Assembly (NCBI GenBank): GCA_964543295.1
Contig: CAZIXA010000002.1
Location: 46,410-110,409 of the forward strand
DNA length: 64,000 nt
Source of the DNA: an uncultured Clostridia bacterium
Lineage (GTDB): Bacteria > Aerophobota > Aerophobia > Aerophobales > AE-B3A
Direction of reading: 5' to 3'
The position numbers and the translations under genes are program-made. Each line of letters begins with the position of its first letter. Position 1 is the stretch's first letter. Below, one piece after another: positions 9,590 to 58,975 of this stretch. The notes under the pieces were generated by a model that did no database searches, was not told the origin of the DNA, and saw nothing but the letters and a program-made list of their open reading frames with translations.

Positions 9590-10729
9590 ATGACAAGAAT
9601 ATTCATGCGCTGGAGAAAGAGTAATCTTCCGAAAACAAAATCGCTGACTCGAACTAAAATTATCTGGCGGGGACTTAGACGAAACCAATTAGGCCTAGTC
9701 GGGGGAATTGTTCTCATTGTTCTTTATCTGGGTGCACTTTTTGCCGATTTCGTTAGTCCATATTCTCCGGATCTCCAGGTCCGAAGTAAGAGCTACTATC
9801 CTCCCACCCCTATACACTTCATTGATGCTCAGGGCAGGTGGAGCTGGCGGCCCTTTGTCTATGAGTACAAACTAGTGGATAGAGCTTTTAAAATTTATAA
9901 GCCTGATACCAGCGTGAAGCATCCCTTCCGTTTCCTGGTGAGGGGAACAGAGTACAAGTTTCTGGGTTTAATTCCTTCTCAAATCCATCTCTTTGGGACT
10001 GATAAGCCTGGTTATATCTTTCTTTTAGGGACAGATAAATTTGGACGGGATCTCCTTTCCCGACTTCTTTTTGGAGCTCGTATCTCTCTTTCAGTAGGAT
10101 TGGTTGGCATCCTGGTTTCCTTTAGTCTGGGAGCATTGGTGGGAGGAATATCAGGGTACTATGGTGGTGCGGTGGACAATGTTTTGATGAGATTCTGTGA
10201 AATGATTATGTCTTTCCCGGGATTTTACTTGCTTCTGGCTCTCCGGGCTGTACTTCCCACTAATCTATCTTCAACTCAGGTCTATCTTTTAATTGTACTC
10301 ATATTAAGCTTCATTGGCTGGCCCGGATTTGCTCGAGTGATTCGAGGTATGTTTCTTTCTTTCAGAGAGCAGGAGTTTAGCCTGGCAGCTAAGGCTTTAG
10401 GGAGCACCGATCTTCGTATTATTTTAAGACATATCTTACCTAACACTATGAGCTTTATCGTTGTAGCGGCTACTCTCAGCGTACCAGGTTATATCCTGGG
10501 AGAAAGTGCTTTGAGTTTTTTGGGGTTGGGGATTCAGGAACCGCAGGCCAGTTGGGGCAATATGCTAGCTGCAGCTATGAACACCCGAGTTTTAGTCAGT
10601 TTCCCCTGGATTTTAGCTCCTGGCCTTTTCATTTTTATATCTATTCTCGCTTTCAACTTTCTGGGAGATGCTCTGCGTGATGCCCTGGAACCCAGGATGC
10701 GAACCAGTAGACAAACTTTTACTGGCTAG
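9590..10729 (+). CDS. Oligopeptide ABC transporter permease (OppC/DppC type) with an extended N-terminus.
   Basis: Polytopic membrane protein of OppC-type topology with an N-terminal extension typical of OppC. Confidence 0.8.
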   Translation: MTRIFMRWRKSNLPKTKSLTRTKIIWRGLRRNQLGLVGGIVLIVLYLGALFADFVSPYSPDLQVRSKSYYPPTPIHFIDAQGRWSWRPFVYEYKLVDRAFKIYKPDTSVKHPFRFLVRGTEYKFLGLIPSQIHLFGTDKPGYIFLLGTDKFGRDLLSRLLFGARISLSVGLVGILVSFSLGALVGGISGYYGGAVDNVLMRFCEMIMSFPGFYLLLALRAVLPTNLSSTQVYLLIVLILSFIGWPGFARVIRGMFLSFREQEFSLAAKALGSTDLRIILRHILPNTMSFIVVAATLSVPGYILGESALSFLGLGIQEPQASWGNMLAAAMNTRVLVSFPWILAPGLFIFISILAFNFLGDALRDALEPRMRTSRQTFTG

Positions 10730-10740
10730 TGAAAAAGTGA

Positions 10741-10764
10741 AAAAGGGGACGTGATTATTTTTGG
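10741..10764 (+). repeat. REP element, forward, between oppC and the M16 peptidase gene.
   Basis: AAAAGGGGACGTGATTATTTTTGG. Confidence 0.7.
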
Positions 10765-10853
10765 TGGCGGTAGGCTTCAGCCCGCGGCTACCAATCCAAA
10801 AAAGACAAATATTTTGACATTACTAATGGAAGAACAAAGGAGGTAAAAATAAG

Positions 10854-14820: not shown

Positions 14821-14900
14821 TCACTTGACACTTCAAATATTTTTATCATTTTTACCAAAAAATGTTAAATATCAATAAAAATGATACTTAAATTAAGGGA
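14821..14900 (+). promoter_or_regulatory. Promoter/operator element, copy 1. TTGACA at 14825-14830, then the inverted repeat TATCA-N7-TGATA at 14870-14886.
   Basis: An approximately 80-bp element repeated at 14990-15070 with about 85% identity. It contains a -35-like TTGACA and a 5-N7-5 inverted repeat. Confidence 0.45.
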
Positions 14901-14989: not shown

Positions 14990-15070
14990 CCTCTTGACAC
15001 TTTGAATATTTTTATTATCTTTAAAAAAAGATGGTAAATATCAATAAAATTGATACTTAAGTGACAAAGA
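14990..15070 (+). promoter_or_regulatory. Promoter/operator element, copy 2. TTGACA at 14994-14999, IR TATCA-N7-TGATA at 15039-15055. It ends about 27 bp upstream of the ArsR-type regulator gene.
   Basis: Same architecture as copy 1. The position fits an autoregulated operator for the downstream wHTH regulator. Confidence 0.45.
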
Positions 15071-21641: not shown

Positions 21642-21801
21642 CGTTACAACAATTTGTCATTGTGAGTGATAGCGAAACAATCTTAAAATCTTACCAACTG
21701 AGGGATTGCTTTGTCGCTTTGCTCCCTGGAATGACAGGATAAAATGTAAAGTTAATTGGGAAACGAACTACTAGATTAAAAAATCGATATCTTCAAGGCA
21801 T

Positions 21802-21977
21802 AGGAATTTCAATAATTTCTCTGAATCGTTATGAAGTAAACCTCGGCAGACGAGATATCAGAAAAAAGAGGGGAGCAGGCTCGACTTGCTCGAGCGAAGC
21901 GAGAGTCGGCTTCGCCGATCGAGCCATCGAGGGGGGAATTCTGAAGGAATCGGCGAAGCCCTATTTCCCCCCTCGAG
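21802..21977 (+). repeat. Structured repeat element of about 175-190 nt, copy 1 (promoter-like 5' part followed by nested GC-rich stems). The second copy is at 58802-58975.
   Basis: About 95% identity to 58802-58975. Internal inverted repeats: GCTTCGCCGAT/ATCGGCGAAGC and TCGAGGGGGGAA/TTCCCCCCTCGA. Confidence 0.7.
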
Positions 21978-22067: not shown

Positions 22068-23540
22068 ATGAATAATTACAGAATCAAAATTGATACAGAA
22101 AGACAAATTGGCAAAATAGATCTTAATATCTACGGTCACTTCATAGAACATCTAGGAAGATGTATTTATGGGGGTATTTATGAGGAGGACTCTTCTCTTT
22201 CTGATGAGAGAGGTTTCAGAAAAGATATATTGGAGGCAGCGAAAGCTATAAAATGTCCTCTTCTGAGATGGCCGGGAGGTAACTTTGCCTCCAATTATCA
22301 CTGGGAAGATGGGATTGGTCCTAAGGAGAAAAGGCCGGTGCGGTTTGATCTTGCCTGGAGTAAAGAGGAGACAAATAGATTTGGTACAGACGAGTTTATT
22401 GACTATTGTCGAGCAATAGGAGCTGAGCCTTACATTTGTGTTAACATAGGAACTGGCACTTTAGACGAAGCCATACACTGGCTGGAATACTGCAATGGCA
22501 GTGGGAATACTTATTATGCGAAATTAAGAGAAAAAAATGGCCATCTAGAACCTTACCGGGTTAAATACTGGGGGATAGGGAACGAGAACTATGGGGAATG
22601 GCAAGTAGGATACAGATCAGCAAAGGAGTATGCGAAGGTTTTACGAGAATATGCCAAGTTTATGAAAGTGGTTGATCCCAACATAAAAGTCGTGGCTGTG
22701 GGGGCTGATAATCCTGATTGGGATCTTGAAGTAACCAAAACCGCCGGAAAATATATAGACTATATTTCCAATCACCAGTATGTGGGCTCCGGCGACTATT
22801 ATGAAACAGTAGCTTCCATTTACTGGATTGAGAAGAGGCTAAAAATTCTAAAGAGTACGATAGAAATAGCTCAACCTTTAGCAAAAGAGGAAGAAAGAGT
22901 AAAAATCGCTTTTGATGAGTGGAATATTTGGTACAGAAGTACGCCAGAAAATGGCAATGAAGAAAATTATGCTCTGAAGGATGGACTATTCGCCGCTGGA
23001 GTGTTTATTATCTTGCATAAGCTATGTCGGAGCGTGACCCTGGCCAACCTGGCTCAACTGGTAAATGTACTGGGAGCTATCCACACGGAAAGGCATGGTC
23101 TTTACCTTACTTCAATTTATAGAGCTTTTGAGCTTTTTGTTAACCACACGGGAGAAATAGCACTAGATACTTTAGTTAATTCAGAAACTTACGATATTGT
23201 AGGGAAGGCGCATTTCGGTCGCAGAGGGTTCAAGCTAACCAATGTTCCCTATTTGGATGCCTCTGTAACCCTAAGCAGACACAAAGATAAGTTATATATT
23301 GTCACAGTTAATTATCATCGGGAGAAAGACATAGAGTGCCCTATATCCTTGGAAGGTTTTTCCTTTAAGGAAGAAGCAAAAGTCTATGAGCTTAACGGTC
23401 CCGATGTGATGGCGGTAAATGATTTTGATAACCCACAGAGAATCAGGATAAAAGATAAGACAATCAAAAAAGTCAGTCCTAGATTTAGTTATGTTTTTCC
23501 TGCCCATTCAGCCACGGTAATAGAATTCAAAGTGGGTTGA
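22068..23540 (+). CDS. Glycoside hydrolase family 51 alpha-L-arabinofuranosidase (AbfA-like).
   Basis: GH51 catalytic-region motifs (WGIGNENYG acid/base region, FDEWNIW nucleophile region). Length is 490 aa. Confidence 0.85.
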   Translation: MNNYRIKIDTERQIGKIDLNIYGHFIEHLGRCIYGGIYEEDSSLSDERGFRKDILEAAKAIKCPLLRWPGGNFASNYHWEDGIGPKEKRPVRFDLAWSKEETNRFGTDEFIDYCRAIGAEPYICVNIGTGTLDEAIHWLEYCNGSGNTYYAKLREKNGHLEPYRVKYWGIGNENYGEWQVGYRSAKEYAKVLREYAKFMKVVDPNIKVVAVGADNPDWDLEVTKTAGKYIDYISNHQYVGSGDYYETVASIYWIEKRLKILKSTIEIAQPLAKEEERVKIAFDEWNIWYRSTPENGNEENYALKDGLFAAGVFIILHKLCRSVTLANLAQLVNVLGAIHTERHGLYLTSIYRAFELFVNHTGEIALDTLVNSETYDIVGKAHFGRRGFKLTNVPYLDASVTLSRHKDKLYIVTVNYHREKDIECPISLEGFSFKEEAKVYELNGPDVMAVNDFDNPQRIRIKDKTIKKVSPRFSYVFPAHSATVIEFKVG

Positions 23541-23553
23541 CACTCCCCACAGA

Positions 23554-23577
23554 AAAAGGGGACGTGATTATTTTTTA
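23554..23577 (+). repeat. REP element (AAAAAGGGGACGTGATTATTTTTT), forward orientation.
   Basis: Exact 22-24 nt motif shared with 10741, 27733, 33652 (forward) and 28486, 33745 (reverse). Confidence 0.75.
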
Positions 23578-24336: not shown

Positions 24337-24360
24337 AAAATGGGGACGGGATTATTTTTT
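24337..24360 (+). repeat. Degenerate REP element (AAAATGGGGACGGGATTATTTTTT).
   Basis: 20 of 24 nt match the REP consensus. Together with the REP at 23554 it brackets the toxin-antitoxin cassette. Confidence 0.55.
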
Positions 24361-27716: not shown

Positions 27717-27732
27717 GTTAAAAAAAGGGGAT

Positions 27733-27758
27733 AAAAAAAGGGGACGTGATTAATTTTC
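27733..27758 (+). repeat. REP element, forward, preceded by a partial copy, 49 bp upstream of the RAYT gene.
   Basis: AAAAAAAGGGGACGTGATTAATTTTC, followed by TTGACT-N16-TAAGAT, a promoter-like sequence. Confidence 0.75.
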
Positions 27759-27806
27759 TTGACTTCTTGGATTTTATTAGTAAGATGAAATAGAAAGGAG
27801 AATTAA

Positions 27807-28496
27807 ATGCCTAGACAGGCTCGTGTTGTTATTGCCAACATACCCTATCACATAATTCACCGGGGGAATAACAGACAGGCCATATTTTTTGGTGAGAATG
27901 ATTATAAATTCTTTCTTGAAGCAATGAAAGAAGCCAAAGAAAAGCATCCTAATAAAGTCTATGCCTATGTGTTAATGAGCAATCATGTCCATCTTTTGTT
28001 AGAGCCAAAGAAAAGAGAGAATCTTCATCAATTCATAAAACTTCTTGCTGCAAAATATACCGGCTATGTTAATAGGATTTATCAGAGGACAGGAGTACTT
28101 TGGGAGGGCCGATTTAGAAGCTCTCCGGTGGGAGGCGAAAGATATTTTTTAGCCTGTCTGCGTTACATCGAGATGAATCCTTTGCGGGCAGGGATGGCTA
28201 AGGAGTTAGAAGAATACCCCTGGAGTAGTTACAGATTCCGAGCCCACGGAGAGAACAGCAAGATTTTAGATTACGATGTGTGGTATGAAGCATTGGCAGA
28301 GGAGGCATTAGTCAGGCAGAAAAGGTATAGAAAATTCTTCCAGGAGACAGTTCTGGAAAGTGAATGGAAGTTAATCAGAGAAATGGCCAACAGGGGAGGA
28401 ATAACAGGGAGTCAAAAATTCTCAGAAAAGATTGAGAAGATTTTGGGCAGGAAGATTATATTGAGACCAATAGGAAGACCTAAGATAAAAAAATAA
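27807..28496 (+). mobile_element. REP-associated tyrosine transposase (RAYT; IS200/IS605-like Y1 HUH transposase, TnpA_REP).
   Basis: The HUH motif SNHVHLL and the catalytic Tyr region (YTGYVNRIYQRTGVLWEGRF). The gene is flanked by REP copies in inverted orientation, at 27733 (forward) and 28486 (reverse). Confidence 0.8.
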
Positions 28497-28512
28497 TCAC
28501 GTCCCCTTTTTT
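28486..28512 (-). repeat. REP element in reverse orientation, overlapping the RAYT stop codon.
   Basis: AAAAAAATAATCACGTCCCCTTTTTTT is the reverse complement of the REP consensus. Confidence 0.75.
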
Positions 28513-28526
28513 TACAAGAGAAGAAA

Positions 28527-30539: not shown

Positions 30540-31262
30540 ATGAAGAAATATTTAATCTATGCAATAATGGTAGGTTTAGTTATGTCCCTTTCGAGAGTTA
30601 CTATTTTCTCGGCAGAAAAAAGCAAAGAAGATGTGTACAGGCTGCAAAGAGAGAAAATGGTGGCAGATCAGATTGAGGCTAGAGGAGTCAAGGATGAAAA
30701 AGTCCTTTGGGCCATGAGGACTGTTCCTCGCCACAAATTCGTCTCAGAAGATCTTATAAACTCTGCCTATGAAGATAGACCTTTACCTATCGGCTTCGGG
30801 CAGACCATTTCTCAGCCTTACATCGTGGCTCTGATGACGCAGTTTTTGGGCGTTGGTGAAAAAGATAAGGTCTTAGAGGTGGGCACTGGCTCTGGTTACC
30901 AGGCGGCTATTCTTTCCGGAATTGTTGAGGAGGTTTACACTATAGAAATATTTGAAGAACTGGGAACAATGGCCGGGAAAAGATTAAGAGATTTGGGTTA
31001 CCACAACGTAAAGGTTAAGGTGGCTGATGGATATTATGGCTGGCCGGAGGAAGCTCCCTTTGATGCAATCATTGTTACCTGTGCTGCCACTCATATTCCT
31101 CCTCCCTTGATTGAGCAGTTAAAAGACGGAGGAACAATGTGCATACCGGTAGGTAGTGTTTTCTGGACTCAAAACTTGATGCTGGTGAAAAAGAAGAACG
31201 GTAAAATTACCGCTAGAAGTGTCCTTCCGGTAAGATTTGTTCCCCTGTTGGGAAAGCACTAG
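30540..31262 (+). CDS. pcm: Protein-L-isoaspartate O-methyltransferase with an N-terminal signal/anchor extension.
   Basis: Motifs VPRHKFV, QTISQPYIVALM and the SAM motif VLEVGTGSGYQAA. Confidence 0.85.
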   Translation: MKKYLIYAIMVGLVMSLSRVTIFSAEKSKEDVYRLQREKMVADQIEARGVKDEKVLWAMRTVPRHKFVSEDLINSAYEDRPLPIGFGQTISQPYIVALMTQFLGVGEKDKVLEVGTGSGYQAAILSGIVEEVYTIEIFEELGTMAGKRLRDLGYHNVKVKVADGYYGWPEEAPFDAIIVTCAATHIPPPLIEQLKDGGTMCIPVGSVFWTQNLMLVKKKNGKITARSVLPVRFVPLLGKH

Positions 31263-33645
31263 AGTGGCGCTCTTTTTTTCTATATTCCTGATTTCCTTCT
31301 CCATCCTTTCCTACGAAATCCTTTTGATGAGGATCTTTTCCATAACGAGCTGGTCGCACTTTGCTTATATGATCATTAGTATTGCCCTCCTCGGTTTTGG
31401 TGGTAGCGGAACCTTTATCTCCCTGTTTCAGAATAAATTAAAAAAATATTTTTATCCTTCTTTTACTATCCTCTCCTTTTCCTTCTCCATTTCCCTTTTC
31501 CTTTGTTTTCTCCTTTCTCAACGAATTCCCTTTGACCCTTTTCTCATCGTCTGGTATCGGCGCCAGTATCTTTATCTATTGGAATATTATCTGGTTCTTT
31601 TCGTCCCCTTTTTCTTAGGAGCAAGTTGCGTTGGACTAATGTTTGCTGAATTTCCCCAGAAGATCAGTAGAGTTTACTTCTATAATCTTTTGGGATCAGG
31701 AGGGGGCGCTTTAGGAGCAGTTCTTTTTCTCTATGTTTTTACTCCTCTTCGGGTACTGGTGCTCATAACTTCAATTGCCTTCCTGGCCGCTCTAATTTCC
31801 TCATCTTATCTGGCCAGAAGGATTTTAATCGGCCTTGTTTTCGCTTCCTTTGCCCTGATCTTTCTTTTTTTTCTCTTTCCCCCGAAACTTATGATTTCTC
31901 AATACAAAGGCTTAAGTACCACCTTAAATCTTCCCCAGGCAAAAGTTTTAAACGAGGTCTCATCTCCTCTAGGCCTTATTGACGTTGTCAGTAGTCCAGC
32001 TATAAGGCATGCCCCTGGCCTTAGCCTCAATTTTGAAGGCACGATTCCTCCCCAATTGGGTATTTTTATAGATGCCGACTCTATGTCTGCTATTACTGAT
32101 TTTGGGGGTAGGCTCTCCAATCTAAGATTTCTAGATTATACCACCTCAAGTTTGCCCTACCATCTTCTTCGCCTACCCAAAGTACTGGTTTTAGGAGCTG
32201 GAGGGGGCTCAGAGGTTCTCACCGCCCTCTATCATCAAGCCTCGTCGATTGAGGCTTTGGAGATTAACCCCCAGGTGATAAGTCTGGTGCAGACTGAACA
32301 CAGCGATTTCTCCAATCACCTTTATTCCCTTCCCCAGGTGAGGCCGGTAGTAGCTGAGGGACGTGGTTTTATTCAGTCCAGCGAGAAAAAATATGATCTA
32401 ATTCAGATTGCCCTTTTGGATTCCTTTAGTGCTTCCTCAGCCGGCGTTTACGCCTTATCGGAAACCTATCTTTATACTCTCGAAGCTGTAAAGGAGTACA
32501 TAAGGCACCTTACCCCTGAGGGCATTCTCTCCATTACCAGATGGTTGAAGATGCCTCCACGGGATGGAATTAAGATATTTGCTACGGCAGTAGAGGCTCT
32601 AGAAGATCTGGGGATAAAAGATCCTTCCTCTCATCTCGTCTTTATAAGAAGCTGGGCTACCTCCACTTTGCTCGTCAAACGATCTTTTTTCTCTTCCTCC
32701 CAGATAATGGCAGCCAAGAAATTTTCTCGCATCAGGCTATTTGATCTTATCTGGTATCCAGGCGTAAAATCAGGGGAGGCCAATCGCTACAACACTTTAC
32801 CCGAAGCCTATTATTATGATGCAAGTAGAAAAATTCTTTCCCCAGAAAGGGAAAAGTTTTATCAAAATTATCTATTCTATATAAGGCCGGCTACTGATAA
32901 TTCTCCCTATTTCTTTCACTTTTTTAGGTGGAAGTCTCTACCCTACCTTCTTAAAACCATGGGGAGTCAATGGATTCCTTTTATAGAATGGGGATATATA
33001 GTTTTGATGGCCACTTTGTTTCAAGCAGTAGTGGTGAGTATAGTTTTGATTATCCTTCCCTTGTTCGGGCTCAAAAGCTCCACCACGGTATCGAGGCACA
33101 GGCTACCTATTTTGGTCTATTTTCTTTTTCTGGGCTTAGGATACATGTTTGTGGAGATCTCTTTTATCCAAAAATTCACCCTTTTTTTATCTTATCCTAT
33201 TTATGCGGTGGCGGTGGTAATATCAGGTTTTCTTTTTTTCTCCGGATGGGGAAGTTATCTAAGTGGACGAATCAGAATAGGTCGAGCAGGTAGTGTAGCC
33301 TCTGCTGTGGGAGCAATAATAATTATCTGTCTTATCTATTTGGGGTTCTTAGACAGCATTTTTCGAAGGTTCATCTCTTTATCGGACACCATAAAGATAG
33401 TGCTTTCCCTTCTCTTTCTTTCCCCTTTAGCTTTTTTTATGGGAATGCCCTTCCCTCTGGGGCTTAGCAGAGTTTCTGTCAAAAAGTCCTTCCTTGTGCC
33501 TTGGGCCTGGGGGGTAAATGGCTGTGCTTCTGTGATCAGCCCAGTCCTGGCCACTATCCTGGCCACTTCCGCGGGATTTAATTTAGTGGTGATAATGGCC
33601 CTTTTCCTGTATTTCTTGGCGGCCATAATTTTTGCTCGCCTTTAA
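31237..33645 (+). CDS. Polytopic membrane protein fused to a spermidine/spermine-synthase-like (aminopropyltransferase-fold) domain.
   Basis: Multiple N- and C-terminal transmembrane helices. A central domain carries VLVLGAGGGSEV…IEALEINPQV…DLIQIALLDSF, the spermidine-synthase signature. Confidence 0.65.
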   Translation: MFPCWESTRVALFFSIFLISFSILSYEILLMRIFSITSWSHFAYMIISIALLGFGGSGTFISLFQNKLKKYFYPSFTILSFSFSISLFLCFLLSQRIPFDPFLIVWYRRQYLYLLEYYLVLFVPFFLGASCVGLMFAEFPQKISRVYFYNLLGSGGGALGAVLFLYVFTPLRVLVLITSIAFLAALISSSYLARRILIGLVFASFALIFLFFLFPPKLMISQYKGLSTTLNLPQAKVLNEVSSPLGLIDVVSSPAIRHAPGLSLNFEGTIPPQLGIFIDADSMSAITDFGGRLSNLRFLDYTTSSLPYHLLRLPKVLVLGAGGGSEVLTALYHQASSIEALEINPQVISLVQTEHSDFSNHLYSLPQVRPVVAEGRGFIQSSEKKYDLIQIALLDSFSASSAGVYALSETYLYTLEAVKEYIRHLTPEGILSITRWLKMPPRDGIKIFATAVEALEDLGIKDPSSHLVFIRSWATSTLLVKRSFFSSSQIMAAKKFSRIRLFDLIWYPGVKSGEANRYNTLPEAYYYDASRKILSPEREKFYQNYLFYIRPATDNSPYFFHFFRWKSLPYLLKTMGSQWIPFIEWGYIVLMATLFQAVVVSIVLIILPLFGLKSSTTVSRHRLPILVYFLFLGLGYMFVEISFIQKFTLFLSYPIYAVAVVISGFLFFSGWGSYLSGRIRIGRAGSVASAVGAIIIICLIYLGFLDSIFRRFISLSDTIKIVLSLLFLSPLAFFMGMPFPLGLSRVSVKKSFLVPWAWGVNGCASVISPVLATILATSAGFNLVVIMALFLYFLAAIIFARL

Positions 33646-33651
33646 AATATG

Positions 33652-33770
33652 GGAAAGGGGGACGTGATTATTTTTTGAGATATATTAAGTCGTCTATGAG
33701 GTAGCAGGCAAACTGCAAAGAAAATTGTGAGCCGGAATTTCGTAAAAAATAATCACGTCCCCTTTTCCTG
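33652..33770. repeat. REP doublet (BIME-like). A forward REP at 33652-33677 and a reverse REP at 33745-33770 are separated by about 67 bp.
   Basis: GAAAGGGGGACGTGATTATTTTTTG … AAAAAATAATCACGTCCCCTTTTCC. An inverted pair able to form a long hairpin. Confidence 0.7.
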
Positions 33771-33934
33771 GTAGAAACTCCGATGTGAATGGTTTTGGTG
33801 CGCATGGTCTGAAAACTACAGATGGGCAGGGTCGCTGCAAGGATAGCCCAAGCAGCAAAGATTCAAAAATCAAGACCTGACCCTTTTGAGTGCTCTCAAC
33901 CAAGGACGCTCAGACTCAGCACGGTCTTTGTTTC

Positions 33935-38716: not shown

Positions 38717-39166
38717 GTGGAAGATAGAGCAGTAGAGGAAATAAAACGGCACTTCGATGTGGTAGCGGAAAGCTTAAAAGATGAGATTAAGCTAATAGCA
38801 GAAGGACATGTCCTTCTGAACAAAACAATAGGCGATCTTCGAGAAGATATAGATGAGCTTCGAAAAGAAAATGCACAAGAGCATGCTATCCTCAACAGGA
38901 GAATAGATGATCTCCGTAAAGAGAATGCGGAAGAACATGCTCTCCTCAACAGGAGAATAGATGATCTCCGTAAAGAGAATGCGGAAGAACATGCTATGCT
39001 GAACCAGAGAATAGACGATCTTCGTAGAGAGAATGCAGAGGAACATCGAGAGATCCTATCAGCCATAAAGTTTTCCTACGCTGAGCTGGACCACCGCATC
39101 GTAGCTCTAGAGGACAAATTCGCTGACATTGAGAAACGTATAACTCGTCTAGAAAGTCTTCGTTAG
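38717..39166 (+). CDS. Coiled-coil protein built from four 18-aa (54-bp) tandem repeats (RRIDDLRKENAEEHAxLN).
   Basis: The tandem repeats at 38839-39054 are in frame. No recognisable domain. Confidence 0.55.
   Translation: MEDRAVEEIKRHFDVVAESLKDEIKLIAEGHVLLNKTIGDLREDIDELRKENAQEHAILNRRIDDLRKENAEEHALLNRRIDDLRKENAEEHAMLNQRIDDLRRENAEEHREILSAIKFSYAELDHRIVALEDKFADIEKRITRLESLR
38839..39054 (+). repeat. Four tandem copies of a 54-bp unit inside the coiled-coil gene (two near-identical, two diverged).
   Basis: Units at 38839, 38893, 38947 and 39001. The 38893 and 38947 copies differ at only a few positions. Confidence 0.8.
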
Positions 39167-58748: not shown

Positions 58749-58801
58749 TTAAAGAGAAAGGCAGGGAATCCGTCGAACTCACGGAGGAAATTTTAAGGTA
58801 T

Positions 58802-58975
58802 GGGAATTTGAATAATTTCTCTGAATTGTTATCAAGTAAACCTCGGCAGACGAGATATCAGAAAAAAGAGGGGAGCAGGCTCGACTTGCTCGAGCGAAGC
58901 GAGAGTCGGCTTTGCCGATCGAGCCGTCGAGGGGGGAATTCCGAAGGAATCGGCGAAGCCCTATTTCCCCTCTCA
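58802..58975 (+). repeat. Structured repeat element, copy 2 (see 21802-21977).
   Basis: About 95% identity to copy 1 over roughly 175 nt. Stem 1 is retained with a C-to-T change that gives a G-U wobble; the terminal stem 2 is degraded. Confidence 0.7.

Follow-up and report, generated by a model that had tools for sequence, protein, structure and literature searches.

The 64-kb stretch of DNA analysed here (part of contig CAZIXA010000002.1; hereafter the window) carries, at positions 27732-28514, a gene for a Y1 HUH enzyme that is bracketed by a pair of inverted repeats. We think it probable that this unit is a TIRtron, that is, a single-copy Y1 HUH gene of subclass 2.1 together with its 23-26-nt terminal inverted repeats (TIRs), and that the same repeats are dispersed as solo copies and doublets in the lineage to which the window belongs. 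The window is syntenic, at ~80-91% nucleotide identity, with a metagenome-assembled genome (MAG) of Candidatus Aerophobetes, and for this reason we take it to come from a relative of that MAG. By analogy with better known systems, the doublets would behave as non-autonomous units, comparable to the hairpin-forming doublets of repetitive extragenic palindromes (REPs) called REPINs, or to miniature inverted-repeat transposable elements (MITEs). The TIRtron arrangement was already described in 2013 (PMC3733652), and the unit is a new example of it, not a new kind of system. What appears to be new lies in the details: arms that covary around a 13-nt core, an invariant AT-hook-like GRP in the protein, and recurrent duplications of the outer half of the repeat.

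The enzyme and its subclass

The gene (27807..28496, + strand) encodes a protein of 229 aa in which an earlier note, made from the sequence alone, had read an HUH motif (SNHVHLL) and a tyrosine block. Both are borne out. The protein matches Pfam Y1_Tnp (PF01797) at 3.8e-17, with 63 bits against a cut-off of 23. The two histidines of H60-V-H62, which lie within SNHVHLL, are invariant among 30 homologues, as are Y120, N124-P125 and W139-S-S, and the class-2 tyrosine motif Y-x3-NP is present as Y120-I-E-M-N124-P125. The catalytic tyrosine block, YIEMNP, aligns such that Y120 falls on the first Tyr of DYIYINP in PDB entry 4ER8 (E. coli TnpA_REP), residue 115 as counted from the printed alignment. 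This entry is the top PDB match by sequence (E 8.5e-4), and it also came first in a Foldseek search with an AlphaFold2 model of the protein (pLDDT 89.9, pTM 0.88), at E 3.3e-10 and a target TM of 0.70, followed by the TnpA proteins of IS608, ISDra2 and IS200. Judged from the alignments and the predicted fold, the window protein is nearer to E. coli TnpA_REP than to IS200 TnpA. The NCBIfam models agree with this order: REP_Tyr_transpos (NF047646) scores 78.9 bits, slightly below its 80-bit equivalog cut-off, and IS200 (NF033573) scores 25.5 bits against a cut-off of 55. Since the REP_Tyr_transpos model matches 30 of 30 family members (best E 1.5e-25) and gives the window protein 78.9 bits, the family straddles the 80-bit cut-off.

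Comparison with the insertion sequence (IS) family IS200/IS605, as represented by IS608 and ISDra2, points the same way. The HUH/Y1 catalytic core and fold are shared, and action on single-stranded DNA without target-site duplication would be expected in both. The window element differs in having Y-x3-NP rather than Y-x3-Q, a length of 229 aa rather than ~150 aa, and ends that are true terminal inverted repeats where IS200/IS605 elements have two unlike subterminal hairpins. It has one gene copy (in the 64 kb of the window), where those elements are present several times in a genome as near-identical copies.

Quentin et al. (2018; PMC6006769) divide the TnpA-Y1 proteins into 12 subclasses. Subclass 2.1, which is Group 1 of Bertels et al., is marked by NHVH, W[EQ], YIELNP, an SS tail motif and a median length of 238 aa (PMC6006769, Table 1). 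Every part of this signature fits the window protein, which has NHVH, W99-E100, YIEMNP, W139-S-S and 229 aa; the Met in place of Leu is no obstacle, both residues occurring in the family. On motif signature and length we therefore assign it to subclass 2.1 / Group 1, and it fits no other subclass. Quentin et al. equate this subclass with the TIRYTs of Di Nocera, De Gregorio and Rocco (2013), which are Y1 genes flanked by TIRs that lie at a similar distance from the gene and share GGGGWSAS (PMC3733652). In some species the latter authors found “moderately abundant families of TIRs”, many of them in dimers or clusters like REPs (PMC3733652). Because the window protein fits the subclass that is equated with the TIR-flanked TIRYTs, we read the element as a TIRtron.

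Beyond the catalytic domain, the model has C-terminal helices at 158-162, 167-179, 184-196 and 203-213, in a domain that is conserved across the family and that may be the “conserved extension” of subgroup 2.1.1. At the very C-terminus, a G-R-P (G223-R-P in the window protein) is invariant in all 30 aligned proteins and stands amid Lys and Arg residues, which gives it an AT-hook-like appearance; Quentin et al. do not use the word “hook” (PMC6006769). An exact-sequence look-up found no record of the window protein.

The terminal repeats and their conservation

The inverted pair consists of 26-nt arms at 27732-27757 and 28489-28514, 96% complementary by a repeat finder, and the unit that they define is 783 bp long. 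The left TIR (27732..27757, +) reads as an A-run, then GGGGACGTGATTA, then a T-run; 49 nt separate its end from the ATG at 27807. The right TIR (28489..28514, -) is the reverse complement of the left and encodes the last Lys codons and the TAA stop of the gene. This is the layout that the earlier note had described, with an inverted pair around the gene and the right copy over the stop codon. A GGAG ribosome-binding site can be read at 27797-27800. The promoter-like TTGACT-16-TAAGAT that had also been pointed out is indeed present at 27759..27786 (+), within the element, in the stretch that separates the left TIR from the gene, with 9 of 12 matches; matches of this quality are not rarer than chance in the region (4 found vs 2.0 expected), and it is not notable on that count. 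We also considered whether a promoter next to the repeat is a feature of the family, and rejected this, as TTGAC follows the repeat in just 4 of 48 homologue loci.

A protein search returned more than 2,500 relatives, one of them 99% identical and the next at 56% or less. The 99%-identical relative is known from one 1,059-bp contig only. The hosts of the relatives include Omnitrophota, Desantisbacteria, Desulfobulbaceae, SAR324 and Gammaproteobacteria, among others. We fetched 83 homologue loci, of which 71 had a complete gene and enough flank, and inverted repeats lie across the gene in 57 of these 71, in many phyla. The spacing is regular: over 48 loci, the left core begins at a median of 71 nt before the ATG and the right core ends at a median of 12 nt past the stop, and the corresponding distances in the window are 67 nt (first G of the left core) and 10 nt (outermost base of the right core). 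A core of the type GGGG(T/A)CAGA, which equals the published GGGGWSAS, is common to the homologue arms, with AAAAAGGGGTCAGAATTATTTTTT and AAACCGGGGACAGACCACGGTTT as examples. The window's nearest relatives have GGGGTCAG or GGGGACAG at the equivalent position, in a unit of equal length. The window unit has the length and layout of the family, with a core that has drifted to GGGGACGTGATTA. Across the family, the similarity of the cores tracks that of the proteins (Mantel r 0.32; 0 of 500 permutations as high).

Because repeats of this kind recur in homologues from other phyla, equally far from the gene, they behave as the element's own conserved ends. This bears on an alternative that the earlier note had set against its own reading, namely an ordinary IS200 TnpA with its own IS ends. 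As to the ends, the alternative is close to what we found; as to the protein, it is not, the enzyme being no ordinary IS200 TnpA.

A further regularity concerns the outside of the repeats. The outer half of the repeat is partly duplicated in tandem directly outside the left TIR, as AAAAAAAGGGGAT (27719..27731, +). This extra copy is missing at the same locus in an independent sample (SRR31155648; L035), and the window has 16 extra bases there. Such tandem partial copies, consisting of the 5' arm, GGGG and 0-5 further nt, stand outside the full repeat in 20 of 101 arms, compared with 5 on the inner side; besides the window (27719-27731) they are seen in homologue loci L049, L054, L072, L085, L098, L113, L116, L121, L123 and others. 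Moreover, indels adjoin the repeats in 4 of 4 comparisons of the window with a relative. Slippage could have produced the partial duplications, or they could be traces left by nicking close to where the core starts.

Dispersed copies and doublets

The repeat occurs well beyond the element. Seven sites in the window match the 23-mer AAAAAGGGGACGTGATTA with at most 3 mismatches, against 0.11 expected, and none of 100 shuffles reaches 7; they lie at 10740(+), 23553(+), 24337(+, 2 mismatches), 27735(+), 28494(-), 33653(+) and 33750(-). The 13-nt core GGGGACGTGATTA, allowing 2 mismatches or fewer, recovers the identical seven sites (1.2 expected). The earlier note's count of at least 7 copies in 64 kb is therefore right, and its statement that all of them lie outside coding sequence holds for the others but not for the right arm of the element, which overlaps the end of the transposase gene.

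The note had also named rarity outside this region as a point that would count against a dispersed repeat. We scanned GGGGACGTGATTAWTTTT over 185,579 species genomes, one genome per species, and obtained 34 loci, 13 of which are contigs of a single MAG, Candidatus Aerophobetes CSMAG_2676. Of the remaining loci, three fall in two unclassified MAGs, and the others are single matches with A/T flanks that do not fit the 23-mer. The Aerophobetes MAG has ~26 copies on its 13 contigs, mostly as outward-facing doublets, and as the motif is thus found on 13 contigs of a related genome, the objection of rarity fails. When the window and the MAG loci are taken together (140 kb, 88% coding by a crude open reading frame (ORF) mask), 28 of 33 copies lie outside ORFs (P ~5e-21). 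Dispersed copies and doublets are also present in some other lineages (L116, L121, L122 and L100); they are not in L036, L040 and L088. In the MAG, the surroundings of a repeat copy are the same on two contigs, L004 (JAUWXE010000082.1) and L032 (JAUWXE010000025.1), but run in opposite directions, which suggests that the assembly broke or duplicated at the repeat.

The doublets are strikingly uniform. All 10 of 10 are arranged as a + copy followed by a - copy, with the GGGG ends facing outward, the T-runs facing inward and spacers of 21-87 nt, and the transposase gene itself lies within a repeat pair of the same polarity. They thus form non-coding units of ~65-135 bp bounded by ~23-nt inverted repeats. 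Five of them (L021, L025, L029, L006 and L034) have a related asymmetric spacer and unrelated flanks, and this is the best evidence we have here for the doublet, not the single repeat, having been copied as a unit. Bacterial MITEs resemble these doublets in size, in their inverted repeats and in the recurrence of one spacer family at five loci. The doublets differ from them in lacking target-site duplications (none is visible, though A/T runs blur the boundaries), in a spacer without significant similarity to the parent gene unit, and in the enzyme of the system, which is a Y1 HUH protein and not a DDE transposase. The possibility that the doublets are internal-deletion derivatives of the gene unit was considered and rejected: when spacers were compared with the first and last 70 nt inside the TIRs, p<0.01 was obtained in 1 of 36 cases.

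Among the copies in the window, the doublet (33653..33767, unstranded) is a head-to-head, REPIN/MITE-like pair composed of a + copy at 33653-33675, a 69-nt spacer and a - copy at 33745-33767; a repeat finder places its arms at 33652-33683 and 33737-33768. It begins 7 nt past the stop of ORF 31237-33645 and is conserved with its spacer in MAG contig L033. The solo copy at 10740..10762 (+) equals the 23-nt consensus exactly, begins 10 nt past the stop of ORF 9590-10729 and is kept at the orthologous site of the MAG (L001). Another solo copy, at 23553..23575 (+), likewise equals the consensus exactly and lies 12 nt past the stop of ORF 22068-23540. A degenerate solo copy, AAAATGGGGACGGGATTATTTTT, at 24337..24359 (+) recurs as an identical variant in MAG contig L017 (1519-1541).

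Several segments adjoin these copies. One of ~42 nt, GC-rich, at 10763-10804, directly follows the solo repeat and is missing at the orthologous MAG site (L001). The sequence after 10762 resembled a tRNA 3' end, but ARAGORN and Rfam found no tRNA or known RNA in the window. Another, of ~157 nt at 33769-33925, directly adjoins the doublet, is missing at the orthologous MAG site (L033) and has no second copy in the window or the fetched loci. Finally, the segment 23576-24336, between two directly oriented repeat copies, has no ORFs other than two small ones of 59 and 67 aa on the minus strand; it starts with an apparent remnant of the start of a signal-peptide gene that is intact in MAG contig L017 (803-1507), and a gene replacement between the repeats may have taken place.

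The earlier note had read the whole as a REP-associated tyrosine transposase (RAYT) with its REPs. In a canonical system of this kind, a REPtron, a transposase is flanked by GTAG-tagged palindromic REPs that spread as REPINs, as in E. coli and Pseudomonas (subclasses 2.2 and 2.5; Groups 2 and 3). The likeness is considerable, for the enzyme is a single-copy class-2 Y1 protein with 4ER8 as its closest solved structure, the REP_Tyr_transpos model matches the entire aligned family, and the flanking short inverted repeat is dispersed, intergenic, covarying with the enzyme and largely present as inverted doublets that would form long hairpins. However, two defining features of the DNA are lacking. 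No conserved GT[AG]G or C[TC]AC occurs in or beside any of the 7 window copies, and the single unit is not a stable palindrome. A CGTC-tagged REP superfamily was also tried. GACG/CGTC occurs in every window copy; we treat this as coincidental because it sits in the middle of the core and is absent from relatives with GGGGTCAGA. The protein counts against a REPtron too, as its score falls short of the equivalog cut-off, it is ~65 aa longer with another C-terminal domain, and its signature is that of subclass 2.1, for which the REP column reads “no”, automatic and manual searches having given no REPs (PMC6006769). Furthermore, the core and its distance from the gene are conserved from phylum to phylum, whereas REPs are specific to a lineage or species. 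The name RAYT thus stands at the superfamily level and the name REP does not, and we regard a canonical REPtron as very unlikely.

Alternatively, the element could be an autonomous, currently selfish IS, with the 783-bp TIR-gene-TIR unit moving as a whole and the doublets as its MITEs. The TIRs at fixed distance from the gene, the promoter-like site inside them, the conservation of the ends across phyla, and the indels and partial end duplications that adjoin the TIRs would all suit such an element, as would the finding that Group 1 has the highest duplication rate among the RAYT groups, 6.2% (PMC5581495). Relatives are also found on plasmids, one with three places, but on just 32 of 72,556 plasmid records. 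The gene itself, moreover, appears fixed at one locus. It is present in one copy in the window, at an intergenic site between the genes for valyl-tRNA synthetase and a deacetylase, and the same chromosomal neighbours flank the 99%-identical gene in an independent sample; two distant homologues, P0008 and P0018, were each found in one and the same context in several assemblies. For subclass 2.1 the mean is 1.9 copies per genome, with 49% identity between copies (PMC6006769). When we add the absence of visible target-site duplications and of significant similarity between the doublet spacers and the inner ends of the gene unit, an autonomous IS seems unlikely to us.

Lastly, the 23-mer could be a signal of the host, regulatory or structural, that has no link to the enzyme: a protein-binding site, say, or a terminator when doubled. 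Three of the window's repeat sites begin 7-12 nt downstream of a stop codon, orthologous sites have kept their copies, and a doublet would give a long hairpin with a T-run after it in either direction. Yet the solo copies have no terminator structure, and a signal of this sort does not account for the 57 of 71 homologue loci that each have a repeat variant of their own at the two equivalent positions, a variant that tracks the protein. We hold this explanation to be extremely improbable.

A candidate mechanism and its significance

We return to the TIRtron reading and ask how the enzyme might act on the repeats. The enzyme would recognise the conserved 13-nt core, probably presented between short complementary arms on single-stranded DNA, and its C-terminal AT-hook-like GRP may assist on the A/T-rich flanks. 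It would nick and rejoin DNA at or within the repeat. Such cutting and rejoining could maintain the doublets and occasionally copy doublets in trans, while the gene stays at one locus. We infer this mechanism from the established HUH/Y1 chemistry of IS608, ISDra2 and E. coli TnpA_REP.

The arms themselves are informative here. In 102 distinct arms, the bases on both sides of the core are complementary, although their sequences differ: the pairs include AATCAAT/ATTGATT, AAACC/GGTTT, AAAAG/CTTTT, GATC/GATC and TTCAA/TTGAA, and the window has A5/T5. Complementarity is sharply maximal at a 13-nt loop; with that loop, 69% of the stem cells pair, compared with 55% in shuffles (0 of 500 as high), and the covariation score is 0.36, compared with at most 0.20 when the partners are slid. 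From these alignments we conclude with moderate confidence that short complementary arms covary around a conserved 13-nt core. A stronger version would have the TIRs of TIRYTs be minimal hairpins, in which 4-7 complementary bases flank a 13-nt, GGGGWSAS-led loop; subclass 2.1 would then use the hairpin logic of HUH enzymes, with the AT-hook holding the A/T-rich arms and a REPIN-like expansion having occurred in the Aerophobetes. We put this forward tentatively and consider it possible but doubtful. If it were true, the nick might fall inside the loop, as it does with Rep proteins, and the partial duplications that end right after GGGGW(C) might be footprints of the nick.

The doublets do fold. 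As single-stranded DNA they reach -22 to -26 kcal/mol (z -6.5 to -9), and the window doublet at 33653..33767 reaches -26.5 kcal/mol (z -6.8), in keeping with the hairpins that the earlier note had predicted for them. Its remark that the motif is not strongly palindromic and that pairing needs doublets also holds, because the doublets fold at these energies and the single units do not fold stably.

A number of points weigh against our reading, and some of them against the hairpins in particular. Five single copies, computed as single-stranded DNA, gave 0 to -3 kcal/mol (z -1.95 to +0.95), no better than shuffles. Across the family 31% of the stem cells are unpaired, and much of the pairing is of an A-run with a T-run, which could reflect AT-hook or bending sites on double-stranded DNA. 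The window core, GGGGACGT in place of GGGGWSAS, matches that consensus at 6 of 8 positions, positions 7 and 8 being different. For published subclass 2.1 TIRYTs a C-terminal helix-turn-helix (HTH)-like domain has been reported (Bac_DnaA_C, HTH_23 or HTH_28), whereas a Pfam search with the threshold raised to E 10 gave neither an HTH nor a DnaA_C match for the C-terminal domain of the window protein. The repeat-bearing contigs of the MAG, which are the ones examined, showed no transposase gene. No transposition event was seen either: the two repeat sites for which the MAG allows a comparison contain the repeat in the MAG as well as in the window, and at both it is better conserved than its surroundings. 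The orientation bias that the earlier note had proposed to measure is not significant for the solo copies, whose orientation relative to local GC skew is concordant in ~9 cases and discordant in ~4, and some of these copies are mutually orthologous and so not independent. In the portions of the literature available to us there is no biochemical test of a subclass 2.1 member.

Against these points stands the overall agreement with the published TIRtrons and TIRYTs. The protein signature, the length of ~230 aa and the conserved C-terminal extension are the same, as are the conserved spacing between the gene and its inverted repeats, the overlap of the 3' repeat with the gene end, the GGGG-led core, the low gene copy number and the existence of the repeat as a moderately abundant family of singles and dimers. 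Apart from the core and the C-terminal domain, the element differs in its host, the candidate phylum Aerophobetes, which is not among the phyla named for subclass 2.1/Group 1 in the available parts of those papers, and in the density of the repeat. Bertels et al. (2017; PMC5581495) found highly abundant flanking 16-mers only with Groups 2 and 3, and report that with Group 1 the flanking 16-mer occurs ~12 times per replicon on average; by that measure, 7 copies in 64 kb is high.

With this element, the TIRtron/TIRYT class, which has been little studied, reaches into a candidate phylum known solely from metagenomes. The element also indicates that a Group 1 enzyme can go with a fairly dense, doublet-rich repeat family, whereas summaries tie REPIN-like populations mainly to Groups 2 and 3. 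The family data yield hypotheses that can be tested, concerning the 13-nt core with its covarying arms, the fixed gene spacing, the AT-hook-like tail and the outer-half duplications. For annotation, genes such as this one are best labelled neither as IS200 transposases nor as strictly REP-associated.

Three further repeats were noticed elsewhere in the window. A GC-rich intergenic direct repeat of 183 nt occurs at 21792-21974 and 58792-58974; the two copies are 95% identical and start exactly 37,000 bases apart. It has no Rfam match, an unremarkable RNA fold (z -1.2) and no copy in any fetched locus. At 38849-39010 there are three tandem 54-nt repeats, with 80-85% identity to the first copy. 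A very A/T-rich direct repeat of 68 nt, which starts with CTTGACAC, is found at 14824-14891 and 14993-15060, its two copies being 87% identical.

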